Source: an uncultured Gammaproteobacteria bacterium (GTDB lineage: Bacteria > Pseudomonadota > Gammaproteobacteria > Magnimaribacterales > D2472). From it: DNA of 64,000 nucleotides. Below the pieces are notes generated by a model. It had not been told where the DNA came from and did not search any database. It was given only the letters and a program-made list of their open reading frames with translations. Every line of letters starts with the position of its first letter. Within the stretch, counting starts at the first letter, position 1. This document shows positions 2,203 through 46,027 of the stretch, piece by piece. The translations under genes were made by a program, and so were the position numbers. The stretch spans positions 10,912 through 74,911 of the forward strand of contig CAJXAZ010000001.1 in assembly GCA_913050015.1 (NCBI GenBank). The letters run 5' to 3'.

Positions 2203-5200
2203 ATGAAAAATGTATTCTCACATCTCAGAGTATCCTCTGAATATAGTATTACCCAAGGCTTACTAACTATTAATCAAATTGTAGACAGCGCTGTTAAGCA
2301 CTCCATTCCATCTGTTGCATTAACAGATAGATCAAATATGTTTGGTTTGGTGAAGTTCTTTAATAAATGTGAGGCCTCTGGAATAAAGCCTATATCAGGG
2401 TCATCTATAAGAGTTATATTCGATGATGATGAACAGTCGCATGAACTTCTTTGTTTAGCAAAAACAAACATAGGTCATAAAAACTTAATGAGAATTATTT
2501 CCTCTGCCCATAATAATTATAGCTACCAAAGCCCAATCATAAATTTTAACGATTTAGCAAAATTAAAAGATGACATTATCGTTGTTTCAGGTGGAAAGGA
2601 TAGTCATATATTTGACCTACTTAAGAGAAACAAACTCGAAGATGCTGAGAAAAAAATTGACAGCTTTCTTAAGGTATTTGATGACGACTTTATTTTAGAG
2701 GTACAAAAAACAAATAGACCTGATGAATTTGAGTATTTTTCTAATATCCTTCCTATAGCAACGACAAAGGGAATTCCTTTAATAGCTACCAATGATGTAC
2801 TTTTTGCTAAACCCGATGATTTTGATACTCACGAGACAAAGGTTTGTATTAATACAGGTAAAACCCTTAATGATCCAAATCGTGAAAAAATTTTTTCGCA
2901 AGAGCAATTCTTTAAGTCATCTGATGATATGGCAAAATTATTTAAAGGGTTTGACTCTCTCTTAGAAAATACTAATGAAATATCAAAGAAATGTAATGTT
3001 TCAATCCATACAAAACAATATTTTTTACCAGAGTACCCTGTTCCAGAAGAGCATAATTTTGATTCTTTTTTGGTAGATCTCTCTAAAAAAAGATTACAAG
3101 AATTTATTAATGATTTTGATGATGAAAAGAATAAAATTTATACAGATAGGCTCGAGTATGAGCTCAATCAGATAAAAACAATGGGTTTTTCTAGTTATTT
3201 TTTAATTGTTTATGATTTTATTCAATGGTCAAAAGATAATGATGTTCCTGTAGGCCCTGGAAGGGGTTCTGGAGCAGGTTCCCTGGTTGCATTTGCTCTT
3301 GGAATAACAACTCTTGATCCTATTTATCACGGATTGCTTTTTGAAAGGTTTTTAAATCCAGAAAGAGTATCCATGCCAGATTTTGATATTGATTTCTGTA
3401 TGGAGAAAAGAGACAAGGTCATAGAATATGTTAGTAATAAATATGGTTCAAATTCTGTTTCTCAGATAGCTACTTTTGGAACGATGGCTGCTAGAGCGGT
3501 AGTAAGAGATGTTGCTAGAGCTTTAGGAAAACCCTATGCAGTTGGGGATAGAATTTCTAAGATGATTCCTTTTGCACCAGGAATGACATTAGATAAGGCT
3601 AAGGAAGATCAACCTATTTTTGCCCAGGCTGCAAAAAATGATCCAGAGGTTAAAGAGGTAGTTGATTTGGCATATAAGTTAGAAGGTATTGCTAGGAATG
3701 TCGGCAAGCATGCTGGAGGTGTAGTTATTGCGCCAGGAAGTATTTCAGATTTCTGTCCTGTTTATAATGATAGGCAATCCTCATCAGTTATGACCCAATA
3801 TGACAAAGATGATGTAGAGAAAATTGGACTTGTTAAATTTGATTTTCTTGGATTAAGAACACTAACAGTAATTGATCGCGCTGTTAAATCTATCAACGCA
3901 TCTAAAAAAACAGATGATCTATTAAATTTAGATAATATTCCTCTCGATGACCCCAAGGTATTTGAATTGCTTTCTTCTGGAAAAACAATGGCTATTTTTC
4001 AACTTGAATCTACTGGAATGAGAGCTCTCATAAAGAGCTTAAAGCCATCTAAGTTTGAAGAAATAACAGCATTATTGGCCTTATATAGGCCGGGACCCTT
4101 AAATTCTGGCATGCACACCACCTTTGTAGAGCGAAAGCATGGAAAAAGCTCGGTAGTATACCCTCATGAGCTTTTAGAGCCTGTTTTGTCTGAGACATAT
4201 GGAGTTATCGTTTATCAGGAGCAGGTCATGGAAGCCGCCAGAGTTCTTGCTGGATATTCAATGGGACAGGCAGATATTCTTAGAAGAGTTATGGGTAAGA
4301 AGAAAATTGAAGAGATGGAAGAGCAGAGAGAAATTTTTGTAAAAGGATGTGAAGAGAAATCTATTTCTGCCAAAAAAGCTAATGAAATTTTCGAACTAAT
4401 AGAGCAATTTGCAGAATACGGATTTAATAAATCTCATTCAGCCGCATACGCGGTAATATCCTATCAAACAGCTTTTCTTAAAACCTATTACCCAGAACAC
4501 TTCATGTCAGCTGTCTTATCTACAGAGCTTGGAAACACAGATAAAATTCATGCATTAATTCAAGAATGCAAAAGAATGAATATAAAAGTGTTAAACCCAA
4601 ACATTTTAACAAGCAGCAAAAGATTTCTTGTTAATGGTGATTTAGATATTGAGTATGGGCTTGGAGCTATAAAAGGTGTTGCTGATTCTTTCATTAAGCA
4701 TGTTTGCTCTATAAGAGAGTCTGTTAATTTTAAAGATTTATGGGACTTTTCTAAAAAAGCAGATATTAAGCTTGGAGGAAAGAAATCTTTAGAGGCTTTA
4801 TCTCAGTCAGGCGCATTTGATAATATTGCACCATCTAGGACCATTGCCATTGCTTGTATAGAAGACATGCTTAAAGATAGTACCAAGACATCAAATGGTT
4901 CCAGTGTAAAGAGTGGTGACTTATTTGCCTCCATAGATGAGAATTTTGATCCATATGAAAAATATAAAAATTTACCTGACCTTACTATGAGTGAATTACT
5001 GTCTTTAGAAAAAAAATCGCTAGGTTATTACTTATCAGGCCATCCCGTAGATGCAATTGGAGGCAAGATTGAAAAACTCAGATCAAGAAAGATTGGAGAC
5101 ATAACAAACGACATAAAAAAAGCATCTCTTGTTTGTCTTATAAATAGCGCTAGACAAATCAAAGATAGAAAAGGGAATCCACTAACATTTATCAATTTTG

Positions 5201-35772: not shown

Positions 35773-35859
35773 TGGTGCCGAAAGCGGGACTCGAACCCGC
35801 ACGAGCTTTCGCTCACTAACCCCTCAAGCTAGCGTGTCTACCAATTCCACCACTTCGGC
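35773..35859 (-). tRNA. leuU: tRNA-Leu (anticodon GAG), leuU-like
   Basis: The reverse complement folds by hand as follows: acceptor GCCGAAG/TTTCGGC, anticodon arm CTAGC-TTGAGGG-GTTAG, long variable arm, and T arm GCGGG-TTCGAGT-CCCGC. It ends in an encoded ACCA. Length 87 nt. Confidence 0.9.
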
Positions 35860-35872
35860 CAAAAGTGGCAAG

Positions 35873-35878
35873 ATTATA
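35873..35878 (-). promoter_or_regulatory. Candidate -10 box (TATAAT on the minus strand) for tRNA-Leu
   Basis: A perfect TATAAT hexamer reads on the minus strand 13 nt upstream of the mature tRNA-Leu 5' end. I found no good -35 element. Confidence 0.3.
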
Positions 35879-35954
35879 GCAAGTTATTATTTGAAATTAT
35901 AAAAATAATATACTTGACCAAACATACATCTTTTCATTACACTTCAGCCTGCGT

Positions 35955-36031
<77 letters not shown>

Positions 36032-36053
36032 CAGTTACATATATTTTTTTTGT

Positions 36054-36073
36054 GGGGCATTAGCCCTTTTTTT
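36054..36073 (+). terminator. Short GC stem-loop plus T-run between tRNA-fMet and rimP; possible attenuator or partial terminator
   Basis: GGGC-ATTA-GCCC (4-5 bp stem) followed by TTTTTTT, read directly. E. coli has terminators at the equivalent place after metY. The stem is short, so confidence is low. Confidence 0.35.
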
Positions 36074-36083
36074 GTGTAAAAAA

Positions 36084-36566
36084 ATGGTAAAAGAAGAAAT
36101 TGAAAATATTGTTGAACCTGTAATTAAAAGGCACGAGTGCTTTTTATGGGGCATAGAGATTTTGAGAGGTAAGAAAAGACCAACTTTAAGAATCTACATA
36201 GACTCAGCTACAGGTGGAAATATTGATGATTGTGAGAATATCTCTAGAGATTTAAATTATGAGATAGAGTTAGACTCATCACTTGGCGAGGATTATGTTC
36301 TTGAGGTTTCAACTCCTGGCATAAGTAGAAGATTTTTTAATCAGAACCAGCTCTTGGAGTATATTGGTGAAGACTTAAAAATAAAACTTAGAGAGCCGTT
36401 AGAGGGAATTAAGAATATTGAGGGCAAGTTAGCTGAATGTAATGAAAACTTTTTTATTATTGAAACAGCTAAACTCGAATATAAATTAGATTTTAATGAC
36501 ATGGATGTTTGTCGATTAGATCCGAATTTTGAAAAATTAATGAAGGAGAATGATTATGGAAAGTAA
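36084..36566 (+). CDS. rimP: Ribosome maturation factor RimP
   Basis: MVKEEIENIVEPV...TLRIYIDS...LEVSTPGISR is collinear with E. coli RimP. I prefer ATG 36084 over the TTG at 36072 given in the track. Confidence 0.9.
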   Translation: MVKEEIENIVEPVIKRHECFLWGIEILRGKKRPTLRIYIDSATGGNIDDCENISRDLNYEIELDSSLGEDYVLEVSTPGISRRFFNQNQLLEYIGEDLKIKLREPLEGIKNIEGKLAECNENFFIIETAKLEYKLDFNDMDVCRLDPNFEKLMKENDYGK

Positions 36567-38016
36567 TGAAATATTAGCAGTTGTTGACTCGGTCTCTAAC
36601 GAGAAGGGGCTCGACAAAAATTTAATTTTTGCAGCTATAGAAGAGGCTATTGCTTCTGCGTCTCAAAGGCATTTTCACGAAGATGCTGAGCTATTTGTTA
36701 AAATCGATAGAGATACAGGGGAATACTCTACTCACAGGAATTGGCTTGTATTTGACGAAGCTGATGAAGAATTCCATTTAGAAACTCATATATCAAAAGA
36801 CAATGCCGATCTTGATTTGGGTGAAACACATACAAAACAACAAGAAAATGTTCCATTTGGAAGAATCGAAACTCAAGCAGCAAGACAAGTTATGCTTCAG
36901 AAAGTTAGAGAAGCAGAGAGAGAGAAGGTAGTTTCACAATTCAAAAGTCAAAACAATCAATTGGTTAATGGAACTGTAAAAAGAGTAACAAGAGACAATA
37001 TAATCGTAGACATATCTCATGATGCAGAGGCTATTCTTCCGAGAGATAAGCTGATGCCAGGTGAAATTTATAAAATTAATGATCGCATAAGAGCTATATT
37101 ACAAATTCAAGAAGTGGAAGGAAGGGGCGCTCAATTAATGTTAAATAGATCATGTCCTGAAATGGTTACTGAATTATTTGCTATAGAAGTTCCAGAAATA
37201 AGTGAAGATATTATAGAAATTAGAGGCATTGCAAGAGATGCGGGCTCAAGGTCTAAAATTGCTGTAAAAACAAATGACGGAAGAATAGATCCAGTCGGAG
37301 CATGTGTCGGTATGCGAGGTTCCCGAGTTCAAGCAGTATCCTCAGAACTTGGAAATGAAAGAATAGATATTATTATTTATGACGATAATCCAGCTCAACT
37401 AGTAATTAATGCGCTTGTCCCAGCTAAAGTCGAATCTATTGTTATGGATGAAAGTTCAAGATCTATGGATATAGCAGTTAATCAAGAAAATCTAGCATTA
37501 GCTATTGGTTCAAGAGGCCAAAATATTAGATTAGCTTCTAGACTGGTAGGTTGGGAATTAAATATTGTTAGTAGCGAAGAGGCAGAAGCAAAGGTTAAAG
37601 TTGAAGAAACAGAGTTTCTTGCTAATCTTACAAGTAGCCTTTCTGTTTCTGATGAAATTGCAGAAAAAATTATTGCTCTTGGTTTATCCTCATTTGATGA
37701 TATCGCTTATGCAGAAGATGCGGTATTTAAAGATTTTGTTGATAGTGAAGAGGAAATTCAAAGAATTAAGAGCTCTGCAGAGGATGCTGCTCTTATGGAA
37801 GCAATGGGAGCAATTACTGAAGAGGAAGGAAATGTTGAGTCATTAACAGATCTTAATCTGGAAGATGAAGATGTTCAAAAGCTTGCGAACAAAGGCATTA
37901 AAAATAAAGATGACTTAGCGGAGCTTGCAGTTGATGAACTTCAAGAAATTATTGAAATTTCTTCAGATGATGCATCAAAAATGATAATGAAAGCTCGAGA
38001 GCACTGGTTTAATTAA
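36556..38016 (+). CDS. nusA: Transcription termination/antitermination factor NusA
   Basis: I place the start at ATG 36556, 7 nt after AAGGAG. The protein has an N-terminal domain, S1, two KH domains and two acidic C-terminal HhH repeats. It overlaps rimP by 11 nt. Confidence 0.95.
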   Translation: MESNEILAVVDSVSNEKGLDKNLIFAAIEEAIASASQRHFHEDAELFVKIDRDTGEYSTHRNWLVFDEADEEFHLETHISKDNADLDLGETHTKQQENVPFGRIETQAARQVMLQKVREAEREKVVSQFKSQNNQLVNGTVKRVTRDNIIVDISHDAEAILPRDKLMPGEIYKINDRIRAILQIQEVEGRGAQLMLNRSCPEMVTELFAIEVPEISEDIIEIRGIARDAGSRSKIAVKTNDGRIDPVGACVGMRGSRVQAVSSELGNERIDIIIYDDNPAQLVINALVPAKVESIVMDESSRSMDIAVNQENLALAIGSRGQNIRLASRLVGWELNIVSSEEAEAKVKVEETEFLANLTSSLSVSDEIAEKIIALGLSSFDDIAYAEDAVFKDFVDSEEEIQRIKSSAEDAALMEAMGAITEEEGNVESLTDLNLEDEDVQKLANKGIKNKDDLAELAVDELQEIIEISSDDASKMIMKAREHWFN

Positions 38017-38036
38017 TCTAAAAAGGAATATATATT

Positions 38037-40316
38037 TTGACTTTAACTGTTAAAGATTTTGCTAAAACTCTAAAGATATCTGATGCAGCTCTAATAGAGC
38101 GCATGAAGACTGCTGGGCTTAGTCACTCTAAAAATACTGATGAGATAACAGCCTCTGATAAGCAGGCATTACTTAGATCCTTAAAAGGTGGGCAACCAGC
38201 ACCGGCTCCTAAGCCTATGACTTCAGGATCTGGCGTAACAGTAACTTCAAAAGGAAAGGCTCCAATTGAAGCCACTGCACCAAGTAGGTACTCTGATGAC
38301 ATTGAGGCGAAGAGAGCCGCAGCTTCTGGACAGCTTAAAGAACAACAAAAAATAAGAGAAGACCAATTAAAAGAAATAGCTAAAACAAAACTAGAAGAGC
38401 AAAAAAGAAAAGACAAGTTTAAAAAACCTGAAGTTGTAAAATCCTCGGTTAAAGTAAATGTTAAGGACCAGCTTTCAAGCGCAGTCAATGCATACAAAAG
38501 AAGAGAGGGATCTTTCCCTAAAAGCTCAGAACATAAATTTGAAGCTCCTACTGAGATTATAAAAAAAGATATTGAAGTTCCTACCACTATTCAGGTCGGC
38601 GAGCTTGCTAAGCTAATGTCTCTTAAGGGAAATATTGTAGTTAAAAATTTAATGAGTCTCGGTGTTGTTGCAACAATAAACGATATGATTGATCAAGAAA
38701 CTGCAATCCTTGTAGTAGAAGAGATTGGCCATAATGCTGTTCCTTTAAAAGAAGAAAACTTTGAAGAAGATCTTGCAAACCTTATTACCTATAAAGATGA
38801 AGCAAGGCTAAGATCACCTGTTATTACTGTTATGGGTCACGTAGATCATGGCAAAACCACACTTTTAGACTTTATTAGAAAAACAAAAGTTGTTGATGGA
38901 GAGGCTGGAGGAATTACTCAGCATATTGGTGCTTACGAGGTAGAGACCTCGAAAGGTATGATAACTTTCATAGATACTCCAGGGCATGCTGCATTTTCTT
39001 CAATGAGAGCCAGGGGTGCCAACACGACCGATATAGTCATTTTAGTTGTTGCAGCTAATGATGGAATAAAACCACAAACAGAAGAGGCAATTAATCATGC
39101 TAAAGCTGCTGGAGTATCAATAGTAGTAGCTATAAACAAAATAGATCTCGAAGGTGCGGATGTGGACAAGGTTAAAGGCGATCTAGCAGCTAAAGATTTA
39201 GCTCCTGAAGATTGGGGCGGCACAACACAAATGGTTCCAGTATCAGCATTAAAAGGTACCGGAGTAGATCAATTACTAGAAAGTGTTTCACTTGAAGCTG
39301 AATTATTAGAGTTAAAGGCTCATTATGACGGACCAGCACAGGGTGTAGTTGTTGAGTCAGAGCTTGATAAATTTAGAGGTTCAATTGCTACCTTCTTAAT
39401 CCAAAATGGAACCTTGAAAGTTGGTGATATGGTTGCATCTGGTAATGCAGTAGGGAAGATTAAAAGTATTGTTAATAGCGATGGATCAAAAATTAAACAA
39501 GCAGGACCATCAGCAGCTGTTGAGGTTCTAGGACTAAGTAATGTTCCTAATGCAGGCGATCAGTTCCAGGTGGTAGACAATGATAAACAAGCTAGAGAAA
39601 TTGCTGAATATAGAATTACTAAAGAAAAAGAAAGAAAGCTACTTAAACAAAAAGATGAATCCGCAGGAGATCTATTTGAATTACTAGGTAAAGAAAATAC
39701 TAAAAAAGTACTTAATATTATTGTAAAAACAGATGTAGGCGGAACTTGTGAAGCAATAACAGCCTCTCTTCATGACTTAGGAAACGATTTAGCAAAAGTT
39801 AAAATTGTTTCAAGCGGCGTTGGTGGAATTTCAGAATCTGATGCAAATTTAGCAGTAGCTGTTGACGCAATAATCATAGGCTTTAATGTAAGAGCCGATA
39901 ACGCAGCAAAGAAAATTATAGAAGATGAGTCAATACCCCTTAATTACCATAGTATTATTTATGAATTACTAGATGATGTTAAAGCTAGAATGAGTGGATT
40001 ATTAGATCCTATTGTTAGAGAAGAGATTGTCGGAACTGCTCAGGTACTAGAAGTATTTAGCTCACCTAAATTTGGTCAAATAGCAGGTTGTAATGTAATT
40101 GAAGGAACTGTTCTTAGGAATAAACCAGTTAGGGTTTTAAGAGATGATATTGTAATTCATGAAGGTGAGCTAGATTCATTAAGAAGATTTAAAGAAGATG
40201 TTAATGAAGTTAGAAATGGAAGTGAATGTGGTATGGGTATTAAAAACTACAAAGACATCAAGCCTGGCGATAAAATCGAAGTTTATGATAGAAAAGAAGA
40301 ATCTCAATCAATGTAA
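38037..40316 (+). CDS. infB: Translation initiation factor IF-2
   Basis: TTG start 9 nt after AAAGGAA. The N-terminus is collinear with E. coli IF2, and the G domain carries [17 protein letters not shown] and NKID. Length 759 aa. Confidence 0.96.
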
Positions 40317-40325
40317 TAGATTTTA

Positions 40326-40670
40326 ATGTCATCACTAAGATCAGAAAAAGTAGCGGATGTCCTTAGAAAAGAAATTTCTTTAATAATAAATAAAGAAACT
40401 AAAGATCCTAGGCTGCAAAATATAAATATTACTGCTGTGAAGGTATCTGATGATATCGGTCATGCTACTGTTTTTTATACACTGATAGGCGAGTCAATAA
40501 TAAAAAGTGAAAGCACTCTAGATAAAAAGGTTCTTAAGAAATTTAGCGGCATGGTTAGATCTAAGCTTTCAAAAACCATGCAAATAAGAAGAGTTCCAGT
40601 AATTAATTTTAGGTTCGATGAGAGTGTTGAGTACTCTGACAATATTGAAACTCTTTTAAAGAATCTATAA
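40326..40670 (+). CDS. rbfA: Ribosome-binding factor A
   Basis: 114 aa. Contains RSEKVADVLRKEISLII and a KH-like fold sequence. Conserved position after infB. Confidence 0.9.
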   Translation: MSSLRSEKVADVLRKEISLIINKETKDPRLQNINITAVKVSDDIGHATVFYTLIGESIIKSESTLDKKVLKKFSGMVRSKLSKTMQIRRVPVINFRFDESVEYSDNIETLLKNL

Positions 40671-40672
40671 TA

Positions 40673-41512
40673 ATGGACGGCTTTCTTCTAGCCTTCAAAG
40701 AAAAAGGTATAAGCTCTAATCGCTTAGTTCAAGAGGTCAAGAGATCTCTTTCACTTAAAAAAGTTGGTCATCTTGGTACATTAGATCCAATGGCAGAGGG
40801 ATTGGTTATTCTTGCAATCAATAGGGCAACTAGATTCTCATCTTTCTTTTTGGAATCTGATAAATCATATATAGCTGGAATTACCTTTGGAACAAAAACA
40901 GATACTGATGATGCTATGGGGCAGGTCATCGAATCTTCAGAGATAATACCTAAAGAAAAGGATATTAATGAGGCTTTAGAGTCTTTTATTGGTGAATCTA
41001 TGCAGGTAGCTCCTTTTTTTTCTGCTCTAAAATTTAAAGGAAAGCCTCTATACAAGTACGCACGTGAAGGTGAGTTTATTTCTAAACCCCCTAGGTATAT
41101 CAATATATTTTCTATCAAAGACATAAGTCACGATGTCAATTCCTGTTCTTTATCTATTCATTGCTCAAAGGGAACATATATTCGATCTATTGCGCGAGAT
41201 CTTGGAGATAAAATCGGTTGCGGAGCCCACCTGTCATCATTAACAAGAACTTCACAGGGTAGTTTCAGCTATTTAGAGGCTAAAAAACCTGAGGCGATAA
41301 ATATAGATCAACTTATATCAATAGAATCAGCTTTTAATAACTTTCATGATATTCACCTTGATCCCGATCAAACAAAAAATTTTAGTAATGGTGTGAAAAT
41401 CTTAGATATTGATCATGAAAATAATTATTATAAAATTTATGATTATTCATCGAAATTTCTTGGACTAGGTGTGGTATCTGAATCTGTCTTAGCCCTTAAA
41501 CGACTTGTTTAA
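40673..41512 (+). CDS. truB: tRNA pseudouridine-55 synthase
   Basis: Contains the catalytic-Asp block KVGHLGTLDPMAEGLVIL and GTYIRS. Length 279 aa. Confidence 0.93.
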   Translation: MDGFLLAFKEKGISSNRLVQEVKRSLSLKKVGHLGTLDPMAEGLVILAINRATRFSSFFLESDKSYIAGITFGTKTDTDDAMGQVIESSEIIPKEKDINEALESFIGESMQVAPFFSALKFKGKPLYKYAREGEFISKPPRYINIFSIKDISHDVNSCSLSIHCSKGTYIRSIARDLGDKIGCGAHLSSLTRTSQGSFSYLEAKKPEAINIDQLISIESAFNNFHDIHLDPDQTKNFSNGVKILDIDHENNYYKIYDYSSKFLGLGVVSESVLALKRLV

Positions 41513-41549
41513 TGGGGTAATAAGTTATAAGATTCGCACGCTTACTTTA

Positions 41550-41590
41550 GTTGTACGAGGTTTGCATCAATTAATGAATGTACAACGAGG
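41550..41590 (+). promoter_or_regulatory. rpsO leader hairpin abutting the Shine-Dalgarno; candidate S15 autoregulatory element
   Basis: Perfect 7-bp inverted repeat: GTTGTAC (41550-41556) and GTACAAC (41580-41586), with a 23-nt loop. The repeat is followed immediately by GAGG, and the ATG is at 41600. A second GAGG sits just inside the 5' side of the loop. Confidence 0.4.
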
Positions 41591-41599
41591 AATATAAAT

Positions 41600-41869
41600 A
41601 TGGCACTTTTAGCTCAAGAAAAAGAAAAAATCGTTGGAAAATTTCAAAGAACTGATAACGACACTGGATCCCCAGAGGTTCAAATTGCGTTGTTAACTGA
41701 AAATATCAATAAATTACAAAGTCATTTTAAAGAACATAAAAAAGACCACCATTCAAGAACAGGTTTAATCAGAATGGTAAATCTAAGAAGAAAACTTTTA
41801 GCCTATCTAAAGAGAAAAAATTTAGAAAGTTACGCAGAGGTTATTAAGCAATTAAAGCTTAGAGGTTAA
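41600..41869 (+). CDS. rpsO: 30S ribosomal protein S15
   Basis: 89 aa. Contains [34 protein letters not shown]. Confidence 0.97.
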
Positions 41870-41892
41870 TATCAAACATAAAAAGGAAAATC

Positions 41893-44049
41893 GTGGAAAA
41901 TAATAAATTAGAATCTACATCAGTAGAATTTCAGTACGGAAATCAACTAGTAAAACTAGAGACAAATAAAGTTGCAAGACAAACGACTGCAGCAGTTGTC
42001 GTTACAATAGGTGACTTAGTTGTTTTAACAACTGTAGTTGCAAGAAAGGAAGCAGATCCTAAAAAGGACTTCTTTCCATTAGCAGTCTTTTATCAAGAAA
42101 AATTTTATGCAACAGGAACAATTCCTGGTGGATTTTTTAAAAGAGAAGCTCGACCAACAGAAAGAGAAACATTAACATCTAGGCTTATAGACAGACCAAT
42201 TAGACCTCTTTTCCCAGAAGGGTTTAAGAATGAGGTTCAAATATTCTGTACTGTAATGTCTTCAGGAAAAGAGCAAAACCCTGATATTGCATCAATGATA
42301 GGCGCATCTGCTGCACTATGTGTTGCCGGAGTTCCATTCGATGGACCAATGGGAGCGGCAAGAGTGGGCTTTGTAGATGGTAACTATGTTTTAAACCCAT
42401 CTTATGCTGAACTAGAAAATTCATATTTAGATATGGTAGTAGCTGGAACTGAGAAAGCTGTTCTTATGGTAGAGTCAGAAGCTAAAGAGCTTAATGAAGA
42501 TTTAATGTTAGGAGCTGTCCTATTCGGACATCAGGAAATGCAAGCAGTTGTAAAGGCCTGTACTGAATTAAAGCAAAAAGCAGGTAAAGAAGATTGGGTT
42601 GTTAAAGTAGATGAAGAAACACCAGTTTACTCTGCAGAACTTTCTGAGAAATATACAGATCAAATTACTGCAGCGTTCGCTATCAAAGATAAAACTGAAA
42701 GAACGGCTGCAATAGGCGTCATAAAACAAGACATAGTTAGCTCATATCCTGATGCTGATGATATTCAACTAGGAAAGGTCTTAGGTGCATTTAAAAGTCT
42801 TGAAAAGGATATAGTAAGAAAAAATATTTTAAGTAATCAGCCTAGAATAGATGGAAGAGATGCAGACACAGTAAGACCAATATTTATTGAGACTGGGATC
42901 CTTCCAAGTACTCATGGCTCATCATTATTTACTAGAGGAGAAACTCAAGCGATTGTTGTTGCAACCTTAGGATCATCTAGAGATGCTCAAAGAATTGAGT
43001 CTATAGAAGGTCAAAGTACTGATAACTTTATGCTTCATTACAACTTCCCTGCATATAGTGTTGGTGAAATTGGAATGCCTTTAGGACCAAAAAGAAGAGA
43101 GATTGGTCACGGTAACTTAGCTAAAAGAGCAATAAAAGCAGTTCTACCTGATGTAGAAGATTTTGGTTATACATTAAGAGTGGTATCTGAGATTACTGAA
43201 TCAAATGGTTCTAGTTCTATGGCTTCTGTTTGCGGTACATCTTTATCACTAATGGATGCAGGCGTACCAATATCTAGTCCAGTTGCAGGTATTGCAATGG
43301 GTCTTATTAAGGAAGGTGATGATTTTGCTGTTCTTACAGATATTCTAGGAGATGAAGATCACCTAGGCGATATGGACTTCAAAGTAGCTGGAACAGAAAA
43401 TGGAATTACAGCTCTTCAAATGGATATTAAAATCCAAGGTATTGATGAAGCTATAATGGAAGCAGCATTAACAAAGGCGAAGGTAGCTATTACTCATATT
43501 CTTGGGATTATGAATGACGCTATTTCTAAGCCTAAAGAATTATCTGAAAATGCTCCTGCTATGAAAACATTCATGGTTAACAAGGATAAAATTAAAGAGA
43601 TTATTGGTAAAGGCGGCGCTGTAATCAAGGGTATGCAAGAAAAAACAGGTGCTACTGTTGATGTGAGTGATGATGGTACTGTTTCAGTATTTGGTCAAAA
43701 TCAAACATCAATGCAAGAATGTCTAGCAATCATTGAGGGTATATTAGAAGAACCAGAATTAAATAAGGTATACAAAGGAACTGTAGTCAAGATTGTAGAC
43801 TTCGGAGCATTTGTAAATATCCTACCTGGTAAAGATGGTCTTCTTCATATTTCTGAAATCTCAGCAGAGAGAACAGAAGATGTAAATGCTGTACTCTCTG
43901 AAGGTCAAGAACTTGATGTTAAGTTAATTGGTTTTGATAGAGGTAAGATGAAATTATCTCTTAAAGCATTAGCTAAAGCTGAAGAACCTGAAGTTAAAGC
44001 AGAGGAAACTGAAGAGGCTCCTCAAGAAGATCAAGAAGAACAAGAATAA
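41893..44049 (+). CDS. pnp: Polyribonucleotide nucleotidyltransferase (PNPase)
   Basis: GTG start 23 nt after rpsO. Two RNase PH domains, then KH and S1 domains and an acidic tail. Length 718 aa. Confidence 0.97.
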
Positions 44050-44072: not shown

Positions 44073-44111
44073 AAAAATCCTAGAAAGTCAAATTTCTAGG
44101 ATTTTTTTTTT
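44073..44111 (+). terminator. Rho-independent terminator of the rpsO-pnp unit
   Basis: AAAAATCCTAGAAA-GTCAAA-TTTCTAGGATTTTT, a 14-bp stem with an ATCCTAGAAA/TTTCTAGGAT core, running into a 10-T tract. Read directly. Confidence 0.85.
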
Positions 44112-44191
44112 CACAAAATTTGCCCCTTTCAACAATATATGGTCTTATATAGGCTGTAAATCATAAATAAATACCTGTAGGGGGGAATATT

Positions 44192-44407
44192 ATGGATAAT
44201 GCATGGAAGATGATAGGCGACTTAGTTAGTAATTTAACTAGTGTCATAGTTGGAATTTTAGGACTAGGAATTGTCGGAAGCTTAGCTTTTGGCGACATGC
44301 TAGGACTTGACGTAATTGGTAATATAACGGCTCTTGTTGAAACGTTAGCTACTAATGGCGTTGTTGGACTTCTTGTTCTAGCAGTTCTTATGAGCCTAGT
44401 TAAGTAA
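44192..44407 (+). CDS. Small two-helix membrane protein (71 aa), family unknown
   Basis: G-rich SD (GGGGGG) 7 nt upstream of the ATG. Two hydrophobic helices (VIVGILGLGIVGSLAFG and VVGLLVLAVLMSLV) flank an acidic loop. Followed by a perfect 11-bp terminator. Paralogous to the next ORF. Confidence 0.65.
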   Translation: MDNAWKMIGDLVSNLTSVIVGILGLGIVGSLAFGDMLGLDVIGNITALVETLATNGVVGLLVLAVLMSLVK

Positions 44408-44420
44408 TACTTAACAAACT

Positions 44421-44455
44421 GTTAAGAAGGGCTTAGACCCTTCTTAACTTTTTTT
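44421..44455 (+). terminator. Rho-independent terminator after the first small membrane-protein gene
   Basis: GTTAAGAAGGG-CTTAGA-CCCTTCTTAAC, a perfect 11-bp stem, followed by TTTTTTT. Read directly. Confidence 0.85.
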
Positions 44456-44465
44456 AAATAAAAAT

Positions 44466-44699
44466 ATGAATTTTAAAGTCACACTAACAAGTCTCACAAC
44501 ATTTCTTAATAAAGTAACAAAACTATTAATACCTTTGGTTTTAGTTTCATTGCTTCTAGGTATTATTTTTGGAACAGAGACTCCTTTTGTAGGAGATGTA
44601 TATAAGAATGTAACTGATATTTTAAATATGCTTGGAGAGGATGCTCTTCTTGCCTTAATATCACTAGTTATAATTCTTTCATATCTTAAAAAAGACTAA
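44466..44699 (+). CDS. Small two-helix membrane protein (77 aa), paralogue of 44192..44407
   Basis: Same architecture as the first ORF (LLIPLVLVSLLLGIIFG, acidic loop, LLALISLVIILSYL, then KKD). Shares the FG and DV-xx-N-[IV]-T blocks with it. No obvious SD. An uninterrupted 77-codon ORF in AT-rich spacer. Confidence 0.5.
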   Translation: MNFKVTLTSLTTFLNKVTKLLIPLVLVSLLLGIIFGTETPFVGDVYKNVTDILNMLGEDALLALISLVIILSYLKKD

Positions 44700-44723
44700 G
44701 CTAAATTTACTTTTTGCTTAGAT

Positions 44724-44744
44724 AAAAAAGATCCCATCTTTTTT
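44724..44744. terminator. AT-rich perfect hairpin (AAAAAAGAT-CCC-ATCTTTTTT); possible bidirectional terminator
   Basis: 9-bp perfect stem flanked by A and T tracts, so it reads the same on both strands. It lies between the converging small-protein genes and the tRNA-Met end of the minus-strand cluster. The weak A/T stem keeps confidence low. Confidence 0.35.
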
Positions 44745-44804
44745 AACCTCATAACTATATTAAAAACGAAGTCCCAAGGGCTTTTTTATTTTATATCTAA
44801 GTAA

Positions 44805-44881
44805 TGGTGGTTGTGGGTGGACTTGAACCACCGACCCCGGCATTATGAATGCCGTGCTCTAACCAGCTGAGCTACACAACC
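44805..44881 (-). tRNA. tRNA-Met (anticodon CAT), elongator-like
   Basis: The reverse complement is GGTTGTG-TA-GCTC-AGCTGGTTA-GAGC-A-CGGCA-TTCATAA-TGCCG-GGGTC-GGTGG-TTCAAGT-CCACC-CACAACC-ACCA, a fully paired cloverleaf. It resembles E. coli elongator Met more than Ile2, but a lysidine-modified tRNA-Ile2 cannot be excluded by eye. Confidence 0.85.
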
Positions 44882-44938: not shown

Positions 44939-46027
44939 TTAAACATTAAATTTAAAGTGAATAACATCTCCATCCTTAACGATGTACTCTTTTCCTTCAA
45001 GCCTAAGTTTTCCTTTTTCTTTTGCACCTGACTCGCCATTACATTCAATATAATCATTGAACGCAATTATCTCAGCTTTAATAAACCCTCTTTCAAAATC
45101 AGTATGAATTACACCAGCTGCATTAGGAGCTGTAGCATTACTTTTAATTGTCCATGCTCGTATCTCCTGAGGTCCTGCAGTGAAATATGTTTGCAACCCT
45201 AGAATTTCATACCCTTTAAAGATAATCTTGTTTAGAACAGGCTCATCCATCTCCATGAGCTCTAAGTATTCGTTCCTTTCTGCATCATCTAGTAATGATA
45301 TTTCTTGCTCAATCTTTATGGATGTTGGTATTACTGTACTTCCAGATTTTTTTGCAAATTCTTCAAGATCATTTAATTTTTTTGTTGAAGATCCATCATC
45401 TGATATATTTGCAATATAAAAAGTTGGCTTAGAACTAAGTAGTTGATAACTATTAAGTACAATTTTACTCTCTTCATCAAAATCATTAATATTTATTAAG
45501 TTCCCTTGATCTAATTCACTTTTAATTTTTACTAAAACTTCATGTTCTAATTTATTTTTCTTATCATTTGTCTTCAGAAGCTTTTCACATTTTGTTAATC
45601 TTTTAGTTACAGTCTCTAGATCTGAAAATATTAACTCTAAGTTAATTATTTCAGCATCCCTTATAGGATCAATTGAGCCATCTACATGTGTTACGTTATC
45701 ATCATCGAAGCATCTAACTACATGAGCAAGAGCGTTCATTTCTCTTATATTTGAAAGAAAGGCATTGCCTAGACCTTCTCCTTTAGAAGCTCCTTTAACT
45801 AAGCCAGCAATATCAACAAGATCTAAACTTGCTGGAATAATTTTCTTTGAATCAACAATATCATTAATATTTTTTAATCTTTTGTCTGGAAGAGCTACCT
45901 TGCCAACATTTGGCTCTATGGTGCAAAAGGGAAAATTTTCTGCTGGTATTGAGGATTTTGTTAATGCATTAAATAAAGTAGATTTTCCAACATTCGGAAG
46001 CCCAACTATCCCACATTTGAAACCCAT
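44939..46027 (-). CDS. ychF: Ribosome-binding ATPase YchF
   Basis: Contains GIVGLPNVGKSTLFNALT, a TGS-like C-terminus and a 362 aa length. pth-ychF adjacency is conserved. Confidence 0.95.
   Translation of the reverse strand: MGFKCGIVGLPNVGKSTLFNALTKSSIPAENFPFCTIEPNVGKVALPDKRLKNINDIVDSKKIIPASLDLVDIAGLVKGASKGEGLGNAFLSNIREMNALAHVVRCFDDDNVTHVDGSIDPIRDAEIINLELIFSDLETVTKRLTKCEKLLKTNDKKNKLEHEVLVKIKSELDQGNLININDFDEESKIVLNSYQLLSSKPTFYIANISDDGSSTKKLNDLEEFAKKSGSTVIPTSIKIEQEISLLDDAERNEYLELMEMDEPVLNKIIFKGYEILGLQTYFTAGPQEIRAWTIKSNATAPNAAGVIHTDFERGFIKAEIIAFNDYIECNGESGAKEKGKLRLEGKEYIVKDGDVIHFKFNV

Follow-up and report, generated by a model that had tools for sequence, protein, structure and literature searches.

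The gap between pnp and a convergent tRNA-Met gene in the window analysed here, a 64,000 nt stretch from an uncultured gammaproteobacterium (GenBank assembly GCA_913050015.1, contig CAJXAZ010000001.1, positions 10,912 to 74,911), contains two short open reading frames in tandem, ORF1 and ORF2. It raises the question whether these frames are genes, whether they are related to each other and to other proteins, and what their products could do. A previous interpretation made without database searches, the sequence-only reading, had described them as diverged duplicates coding for two-helix membrane proteins of no recognisable family. The coordinates and translations it had given for both ORFs were found to be correct (Table 1).

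ORF1 and ORF2 are conserved protein-coding genes

We considered two alternatives for the origin of these frames. First, they could be genuine genes; second, they could be chance open frames in the spacer, coding for nothing. The sequence-only reading had taken it as a sign of genes that both frames stay open in AT-rich DNA. This argument did not hold. Mononucleotide shuffles of the 35% GC window contained about 10 ORFs of at least 71 aa starting with ATG, and spurious ORFs of 79-146 aa are found antisense to real genes in the window. The length of an open frame is thus no evidence for a gene here. That such frames arise so readily, and that ORF2 is not preceded by a ribosome-binding site, are the points which speak for chance ORFs.

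The comparison of the gap between pnp and tRNA-Met across relatives, which had been suggested as a check, gave a clear answer. One genome per species was scanned, resulting in 44 genomes of SAR86, a group that is among the most abundant uncultured bacteria of the surface ocean and has small genomes. The order pnp, ORF1, hairpin, ORF2, tRNA-Met (complement) and ychF (complement) was found in 44 of 44 species genomes, wherever the contig extends, and the spacing between ORF1 and ORF2 is 51-62 nt. Both ORFs are intact in almost all of these loci.

Only two loci deviate. In a metagenome-assembled genome (MAG) labelled OM182 clade (L008, 1045-1471) ORF2 continues past residue 72 into unrelated sequence, which suggests a chimeric contig. 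In a SAR86 MAG (L036, about 4001-4227) ORF2 is frameshifted, suggesting an assembly error.

The median pairwise ratio of nonsynonymous to synonymous substitution rates (dN/dS) among the SAR86 species is 0.16 for ORF1 and 0.12 for ORF2, and in both ORFs the GC content drops from codon position 1 to codon position 3, a pattern also seen in pnp. Identity to the window across the SAR86 species amounts to 54-100% for ORF1, 70-100% for ORF2, 72-99% for pnp and 62-96% for ychF. In the most distant species the values are 70-85% for ORF1 and ORF2, 72-75% for pnp and 62-65% for ychF, i.e. both small proteins are conserved about as well as PNPase. At 90% identity the homologous sequences form 271 (ORF1) and 642 (ORF2) clusters, all of them from SAR86 or from unclassified marine Gammaproteobacteria. 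A divergent SAR86-like lineage, with identities of 48% (ORF1) and 35% (ORF2), has kept the layout of pnp, first gene, GC-rich terminator hairpin and second gene; here the second gene is preceded by a GGAG ribosome-binding site, and tRNA-Met is separated from it by an esterase gene.

These data show that ORF1 and ORF2 are real protein-coding genes. The low dN/dS values, the frames kept across 44 species, the hundreds of homologous clusters and the pnp-like codon pattern already refute the chance ORFs, to which we give practically no credence. From the synteny, the dN/dS values and the levels of identity it follows that the pair is old, belongs to the core of the genome and is under strong purifying selection. 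The missing Shine-Dalgarno sequence of ORF2 had also been raised as a doubt on the gene call. This doubt was removed, as ORF2 is conserved better than ORF1 and the GGAG site is present in front of its orthologue in the divergent lineage.

The sequence-only reading had remarked on the neighbouring tRNA gene, and such a position can be a hint to a mobile island. No relatives of the SAR86-type sequences were found among the IMG/VR viral contigs, and together with the invariant synteny this rules out a mobile island or a prophage beside the tRNA gene; the pair is core, syntenic and conserved like pnp.

Since the pair is present in every genome examined, is conserved like PNPase and has strong expression signals (see below), it likely matters to the cell. 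Despite this conservation its copies are annotated everywhere as "hypothetical protein". Among the clusters mentioned above the annotations are either "hypothetical" or implausible automatic transporter names, and none carries a Pfam domain.

Relationship of the two proteins and their wider family

No similarity between ORF1 and ORF2 was detected by BLASTP. Alignment of the two profiles with hhalign gave an E-value of 9e-5 and a probability of 59% over 45 columns, in the same register in which the sequence-only reading had aligned the proteins by eye. When the hidden Markov model (HMM) of ORF1 was run on real ORF2 sequences, the mean score was 11.1 bits compared with 0.4 ± 2.4 bits for segment-preserving shuffles, and 0.1% of the shuffles preserving the composition of the segments attained the mean score of the real sequences. 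A joint MAFFT alignment of both families is collinear over the whole length, with 21% identity. ORF1 and ORF2 are thus shown to be distant paralogues, and the proposed duplication was borne out. ORF2 shares 23-39% identity with members of a broader family and only 15-21% with ORF1-type sequences; the scores of both proteins with the family HMM are given in Table 1.

The extent of this broader family became apparent when 1.84 billion representative proteins were screened with a joint profile. At E-values up to 1e-3 there were 210 clusters at 50% identity, which sets the family at no fewer than 210 such clusters, and nearly all of them consist of proteins of 70-80 aa. With a profile built from 60 diverse members, the clusters at 90% identity numbered at least 1,988. 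The source names among these relatives include MAGs labelled Rhodospirillaceae, Sneathiellales, Myxococcales and Deltaproteobacteria as well as many Tara Oceans genes. The searches show that the pair belongs to a large uncurated and unnamed family of marine bacteria and marine phages. The statement that the proteins belong to no recognisable family therefore holds for curated families and has to be revised with regard to this uncurated one. ORF1, ORF2, 10 distant members and the 60 alignment members gave no significant or recurrent match in Pfam, NCBIfam, PHROGs and PADLOC, and three profiles, two of SAR86 and one of the broad family, gave no significant match to PDB sequences. With Foldseek nothing with an E-value below 1 was found in PDB and BFVD, and a search of the literature on SAR86 small membrane proteins turned up nothing relevant.

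Weighted column frequencies were calculated from an alignment of 112 sequences comprising ORF2, ORF1 and broad-family sequences. In ORF2 numbering, the near-invariant positions are T18, F35-G36, F41, D44, N48, T50, L56-G57, G60 and G63-L64. ORF2 itself has A instead of G at positions 60 and 63. ORF1 lacks a P-F insert in the turn, which is present in the ORF1 orthologue of the divergent SAR86 lineage.

Outside SAR86, cellular relatives were examined in six different contexts on contigs of up to 4.3 Mb. The gene is always single, with non-coding flanks of 150-570 nt and unrelated metabolic or transport genes as neighbours, and no conserved partner gene was found in the six contexts. Members of the alphaproteobacterial type (L045, 5432-6003; L051, 4438-5003; L115, 3436-4003) are preceded by an extended region in which a TTGACA promoter, two small hairpins in the 5' untranslated region and a GGGGGA ribosome-binding site are conserved; these regions have no match in Rfam.

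Viral contigs (IMG/VR) were searched with single family proteins as queries, and members were found in at least three sets of marine viral contigs, which belong to three subfamilies (28, 18 and 11 contigs). The first subfamily occurs, besides the 28 IMG/VR contigs, in three metagenome contigs of 23-33 kb. These contigs carry a portal gene, a recognised holin (phrog_3427/GTA_holin_3TM) and a Peptidase_M15_3 endolysin, and a T9SS sorting domain in one protein suggests that the hosts are Bacteroidota. The family member closes the holin-endolysin cassette in about 20 related contigs, directly after the endolysin gene or one gene further; in others it follows a gene for a DUF5675 protein or for a signal-peptide protein of about 130 aa. 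The second subfamily (18 contigs) has a non-lysis context. The contigs of the third subfamily (11) are up to 169 kb long, and here the member is situated between a gene for a 280-aa signal-peptide protein and phoH.

Two of the phoH-carrying contigs contain a second copy about 1.6 kb downstream, past phoH and a gene for a protein of 165-172 aa (L105, 5791-6003; L109, 5793-6011), so that paired copies are not unique to SAR86. It was also observed that in two unrelated sets of viral contigs a gene for a signal-peptide protein is located directly upstream of the family member (L059, 4576-4968; L063, 4593-4988; L071, 4563-4976; L075, 1630-2028; L102, 3132-3974). This protein belongs to no Pfam or PHROG family, and its length differs between the two sets (about 130 and about 280 aa). 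The signal-peptide gene and the family member may form a recurring two-gene unit.

A tblastn search of the cultured phages in INPHARED with two phage-type members gave no match, where the low-complexity filter may hide such hydrophobic queries. The one cultured relative examined, a Flavobacterium phage with the neighbouring exonuclease gene in common, has a holin and an amidase at the corresponding end of its genome and no family member. The uncultured phages have the member where the lysis module meets the early module, and terminator-like hairpins of its own come after it. Because of this position, the separate hairpins and the absence from the cultured relative, the phage copies look like accessory insertions and not like the primary holin.

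Predicted structure and proposed function

With the family-wide alignment of 112 sequences AlphaFold modelled ORF2 as one long hairpin of two helices (residues 3-35 and 42-75) with a six-residue turn, G-T-E-T-P-F; the predicted local distance difference test score (pLDDT) is 89.1 and the predicted template modelling score (pTM) is 0.57. According to hydropathy and hydrophobic moment each helix has an amphipathic half (3-19 and 42-58, moment about 2) and a hydrophobic half (20-35 and 60-74, core hydropathy 2.5-3.4). From the model, each of the two proteins is predicted to fold into two helices, each about 33 residues long, that form a hairpin. Helix 1 would consist of an amphipathic N-terminal half and a hydrophobic half ending in the conserved F-G, followed by the turn with the conserved P-F. 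Helix 2 would start with an amphipathic half containing the conserved D-x-x-x-N-x-T, and would continue with a G-x-x-G-x-x-G stretch, the hydrophobic half and a basic tail. In the antiparallel register T18, position 28 (G/A/S) and position 32 (Q/G/S) of helix 1 would be placed opposite N59/D58, N48 and D44 of helix 2. The two hydrophobic helices, the amphipathic N-terminus and the basic C-terminus described by the sequence-only reading were recovered for both proteins. Its acidic loop of about 22 aa was not, as this segment is modelled as a helix continuous with the second hydrophobic segment and is probably helical.

Lysine and arginine residues are found at both termini in both paralogues and throughout the family, and therefore the termini are probably cytoplasmic. 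This would place the proteins in the inner membrane with the basic termini in the cytoplasm and the side of the acidic turn in the periplasm. A dual-topology pair, in which the two proteins would be inserted antiparallel to each other, was also considered and is ruled out by the same distribution of charges.

As a tentative proposal, which we hold with less than even confidence, the proteins form a self-assembling oligomer that changes how permeable or how intact the inner membrane is, like a small pore or leak channel. The protein would assemble with itself and would need no dedicated partner. Such a partner-free action is suggested by the solitary gene, its large intergenic flanks and the unrelated neighbours in the six cellular contexts. 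In SAR86 the assembly would be a hetero-oligomer of abundant ORF1 and rarer ORF2, and the ratio of the two would be set by the intercistronic hairpin and the weak translation start of ORF2 (see below). The hydrophobic halves would be turned towards the lipid, with the conserved polar and glycine faces packed inside. The permeability or integrity of the inner membrane would be changed in a viroporin- or holin-like manner; cells would use the assembly constitutively, whereas phages would use their copies during infection.

Several points weigh against this proposal. There is no homology to a characterised pore, holin or channel in the curated libraries or in the profile searches against PDB. The hydrophobic segments are staggered in the monomer model and do not lie side by side, and the ORF1 model, all helical and calculated from a shallow alignment, reaches a pLDDT of only 62. 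A lethal hole of the holin type would hardly be expected from a gene with strong constitutive expression signals. As stated above, the phage copies look like accessory insertions, in phages that already encode a recognised holin. Finally, it is solely the joint retention of ORF1 and ORF2 that speaks for hetero-oligomerisation. More doubtful still is the wider proposal that the family is an unrecognised class of self-assembling membrane hairpins tuning the permeability or energisation of the inner membrane, a core and highly expressed component of abundant marine bacteria that was duplicated to a major/minor pair in SAR86 and was captured repeatedly by several lineages of marine phages as a new factor for lysis timing or host takeover.

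The alternative that survives best is that no pore is formed and that the products are abundant structural or regulatory membrane proteins. Like AcrZ, CydX or KdpF, they could serve a widespread membrane complex as a small subunit or as an assembly factor, or they could be a hairpin that organises or stabilises the membrane, and the phage copies would then keep the host membrane functional while the infection lasts. Such a non-conducting role is nearly equal to the pore in our estimation, unlikely as it is when taken by itself. It is in line with the strong and apparently constitutive expression signals, the very strong purifying selection, the core and non-mobile position of the pair and the location of phage copies among accessory genes, e.g. 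beside phoH. In addition, the conserved polar and small residues could serve as contacts between the two helices of one hairpin, with no lumen left between them. On the other hand, no conserved neighbour or partner gene is present in the six cellular contexts, and with members both in Bacteroidota-infecting phages and in Proteobacteria a partner would need to be universal. Moreover, AcrZ, CydX and KdpF are mostly shorter proteins with a single helix.

The two possibilities differ in their consequences. If the proteins control membrane permeability, they would be a new player in phage lysis or host takeover and in the membrane physiology of streamlined marine bacteria; if they are only structural membrane proteins, the result is a useful annotation of ordinary interest. 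The ORFs themselves are not new, as they had already been predicted in public genomes as hypothetical proteins. New are the definition and size of the family, the link between phages and cells, the hairpin predicted with confidence by the model and the conserved tandem pair with its candidate attenuator. Two anonymous ORFs thereby become a defined and testable family with a list of invariant residues and natural contrasts between phages and cells.

By its architecture this family resembles known small hairpin membrane proteins and is a member of none of their families. The proteolipids of F/V-ATPases (c-subunits) are helical hairpins of about 75-80 aa. The SAR86 proteins are like them in predicted shape and in length, with two long helices, a short polar turn, glycine-rich packing motifs and an expected oligomerisation. 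They differ in that there is no match to ATP-synt_C, in that each helix is half amphipathic and in the pnp/tRNA context, which is not an atp operon. Unlike in the c-subunit with its carboxylate in the middle of helix 2, no D or E is conserved at positions 61-74 of helix 2. The T4 superinfection-exclusion protein Imm has about 83 aa and two membrane helices. Like Imm and the viroporins, the family comprises small and presumably autonomous membrane proteins which viruses carry as accessory genes and which would need no dedicated partners; unlike them, it also has widespread conserved cellular members, which would be unusual for exclusion proteins. A superficial similarity to TatA/TatE is the F-G hinge with an amphipathic helix behind it. 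Here, however, the amphipathic helix is acidic and a second hydrophobic segment follows, and no Pfam match to MttA_Hcf106 was found in ORF1, ORF2 or the 60 members.

An origin from phage lysis genes was considered as well. The pair could be a domesticated lysis module of the holin-antiholin or pinholin type, with ORF1 as the hole-former and ORF2 as its antagonist, used for controlled lysis or for the release of vesicles or proteins. Class II holins and pinholins, such as S21 of phage 21, have two transmembrane domains and 65-95 aa. ORF1 and ORF2 resemble them in the small size and the two hydrophobic segments; their basic termini would be cytoplasmic as well, and the first segment of ORF1 is rich in glycine and small residues. 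Distant relatives in marine viral contigs also fit, since they come right after the Peptidase_M15_3 endolysin gene (about 20 contigs) or after DUF5675, and by analogy a tandem pair with unequal expression would resemble the logic of holin and antiholin.

In contrast to a lysis module, the SAR86 genes have a core chromosomal position, and in the window no endolysin or other phage gene was found near the pair. The synteny extends across the deep divergence of SAR86, with the SAR86-type sequences missing from IMG/VR, and the constitutive-looking promoter and strong ribosome-binding site are ill-suited to a lethal product. The hydrophobic segments are short (15-17 residues) and, in the model, staggered on two 33-residue helices. 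Similarity to holin families is lacking at the level of sequence and profile: ORF1, ORF2 and 10 distant members have no match to the holin families of Pfam and PHROGs, the phage member P0440 has no PHROG, and among the 60 members there is a single match to Phage_holin_3_3 with an E-value of 0.82. Because of the core context, the constitutive-looking signals, the missing endolysin and the missing holin homology we regard a holin-antiholin module as improbable. For the holin-like nature suggested by the sequence-only reading there is only positional support, from the distant phage relatives after an endolysin; those phages already carry a recognised holin.

That the proteins belong to the Kcv type of minimal viral cation-channel subunits, in which a slide helix and an outer helix precede the pore helix, the filter and the inner helix, is very improbable in our view. 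The length and the order of the segments are superficially alike, and potassium-channel chains are among the weak matches of the two SAR86 profiles (E-values 1.8-3.2). These matches are not significant and are gone with the broad-family profile. Furthermore, a T-x-G-Y/F-G filter motif and a Pfam ion-channel match are missing, and AlphaFold predicts a plain hairpin without a re-entrant loop.

Still less can be said for pilin-like subunits of type IV secretion or conjugation (VirB2/TrbC/TIGR03745 class), which had been among the speculations of the sequence-only reading. Small size and two hydrophobic helices are common to both, and near full-length matches below threshold were obtained for 2 of the 60 members to DUF2976 (E-value 0.13) and TIGR03745 (E-value 0.021) and for one to a pilin-like ICE family. 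All of these are under the curated cut-offs and expected by chance across 60 queries, and none concerns ORF1 or ORF2. The N-terminus is polar and amphipathic and is not a signal peptide, and type IV secretion genes were found neither in the window nor in any related locus examined, a context that effectively refutes this reading. A two-peptide membrane-active pair in the sense of class IIb bacteriocins, likewise proposed before, found no supporting context. Such bacteriocins have a double-glycine leader and genes for immunity and an ABC exporter next to them; the N-termini here contain no leader motif, and the neighbours are pnp, tRNA-Met and ychF.

Expression signals and layout of the locus

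The region upstream of ORF1 was compared in an alignment of 43 distinct sequences from the 44 SAR86 loci. It contains three conserved blocks whose distances from one another are constant: TTG at 44120-44122, (A/G)TG.T.TTATA at 44139-44149 and the run of five to six G which forms the ribosome-binding site, the G-rich Shine-Dalgarno sequence already pointed out in the sequence-only reading. A similar GGGGGA precedes the family members of the alphaproteobacterial type. The first two blocks were assigned to a putative promoter (Table 1); this assignment is made from conservation, since a scan with consensus promoters gave no call at this position. From the conserved promoter block and the G run we would expect the ORF1 product to be highly abundant.

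The stem-loop between the two genes, described before as a terminator with a perfect 11-bp stem, was confirmed with its 11 pairs and seven T. It was found at all 43 loci examined, and in an alignment of 23 intergenic sequences compensatory double changes occur at 11 of 11 stem pairs, showing that the hairpin is conserved as an RNA element. In no more than 22 of the 43 loci is the stem followed by a strong T tract; hence it is the hairpin itself that is the conserved element. It could act as a leaky intrinsic terminator or as a stabiliser of the mRNA 3' end that sets the level of ORF1 above that of ORF2. ORF2 starts 11 nt past the T run without a ribosome-binding site in this lineage. The hairpin and this weak translation start together lead to the prediction that more ORF1 than ORF2 is made, and ORF1 would then be the major and ORF2 the minor subunit.

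The stop codon of ORF1 is located in the loop of a small hairpin (Table 1). Its words GTTAAG and CTTAAC also build the base of the intercistronic terminator, and 44401-44416 could instead pair with 44420-44435. To judge from the sequence, the alternative pairing within 44399-44448 hints at a translation-coupled attenuation.

Table 1. Features between pnp and ychF, numbered from the first nucleotide of the window
Feature	Position	Strand	Remarks
pnp	41893-44049	+	upstream neighbour of ORF1
pnp intrinsic terminator	44073-44106	+	14 pairs and T run, 100% complementary; upstream boundary of the unit
putative ORF1 promoter	44120-44148	+	-35 TTGCCC (44120-44125), 17-nt spacer, extended -10 TGgTCTTAT (44140-44148)
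ORF1 ribosome-binding site GGGGGG	44180-44185	+	6 nt before the ATG; run of five to six G in all 43 upstream sequences
ORF1, 71 aa	44192-44407	+	family-typical paralogue; 78.9 bits with the family HMM
small hairpin GTTAAGTA/TACTTAAC	44399-44415	+	ORF1 stop codon in the loop; 3' arm can alternatively pair with the 5' arm of the next hairpin
intercistronic stem-loop	44421-44455	+	11 bp stem (44421-44448), loop CTTAGA, T7 tract; fold z-score -4.6
ORF2, 77 aa	44466-44699	+	second paralogue; 97.7 bits with the family HMM
3' end of the unit	44696-44784	+	hairpins 44696-44721 and 44723-44745 (AT hairpin); terminator-like GC stem and T run 44768-44784
tRNA-Met(CAT)	44805-44881	-	convergent; downstream boundary, outside the unit; position kept in every SAR86 locus reaching it
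ychF-type GTPase gene	44939-46027	-	beyond tRNA-Met

The pnp terminator and the AT hairpin bracket the pair, as the sequence-only reading had noted. Across the 44 SAR86 species the stem arms of the pnp terminator vary, and the loop, AAAGTCAAATTT, is almost the same throughout. An inverted copy of the CAAATTT in this loop, AAATTTG, is found at 44116-44122 and overlaps with the putative -35 box. Going by the sequence, the loop could be the seed of a small RNA derived from the 3' untranslated region or a protein-binding site. No Rfam family was found around the locus in the window or upstream of the cellular members (six loci).

A tRNA-Leu(GAG) gene is located on the minus strand within the region 35773-44049 of the window. 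A second tRNA-Met(CAT) gene (35955-36031) heads the run of plus-strand ORFs that ends in pnp. By its layout this run may match the metY-nusA-infB-rbfA-truB-rpsO-pnp arrangement of E. coli. The domains of IF-2, RbfA, TruB, S15 and PNPase were detected at one related locus (L112).

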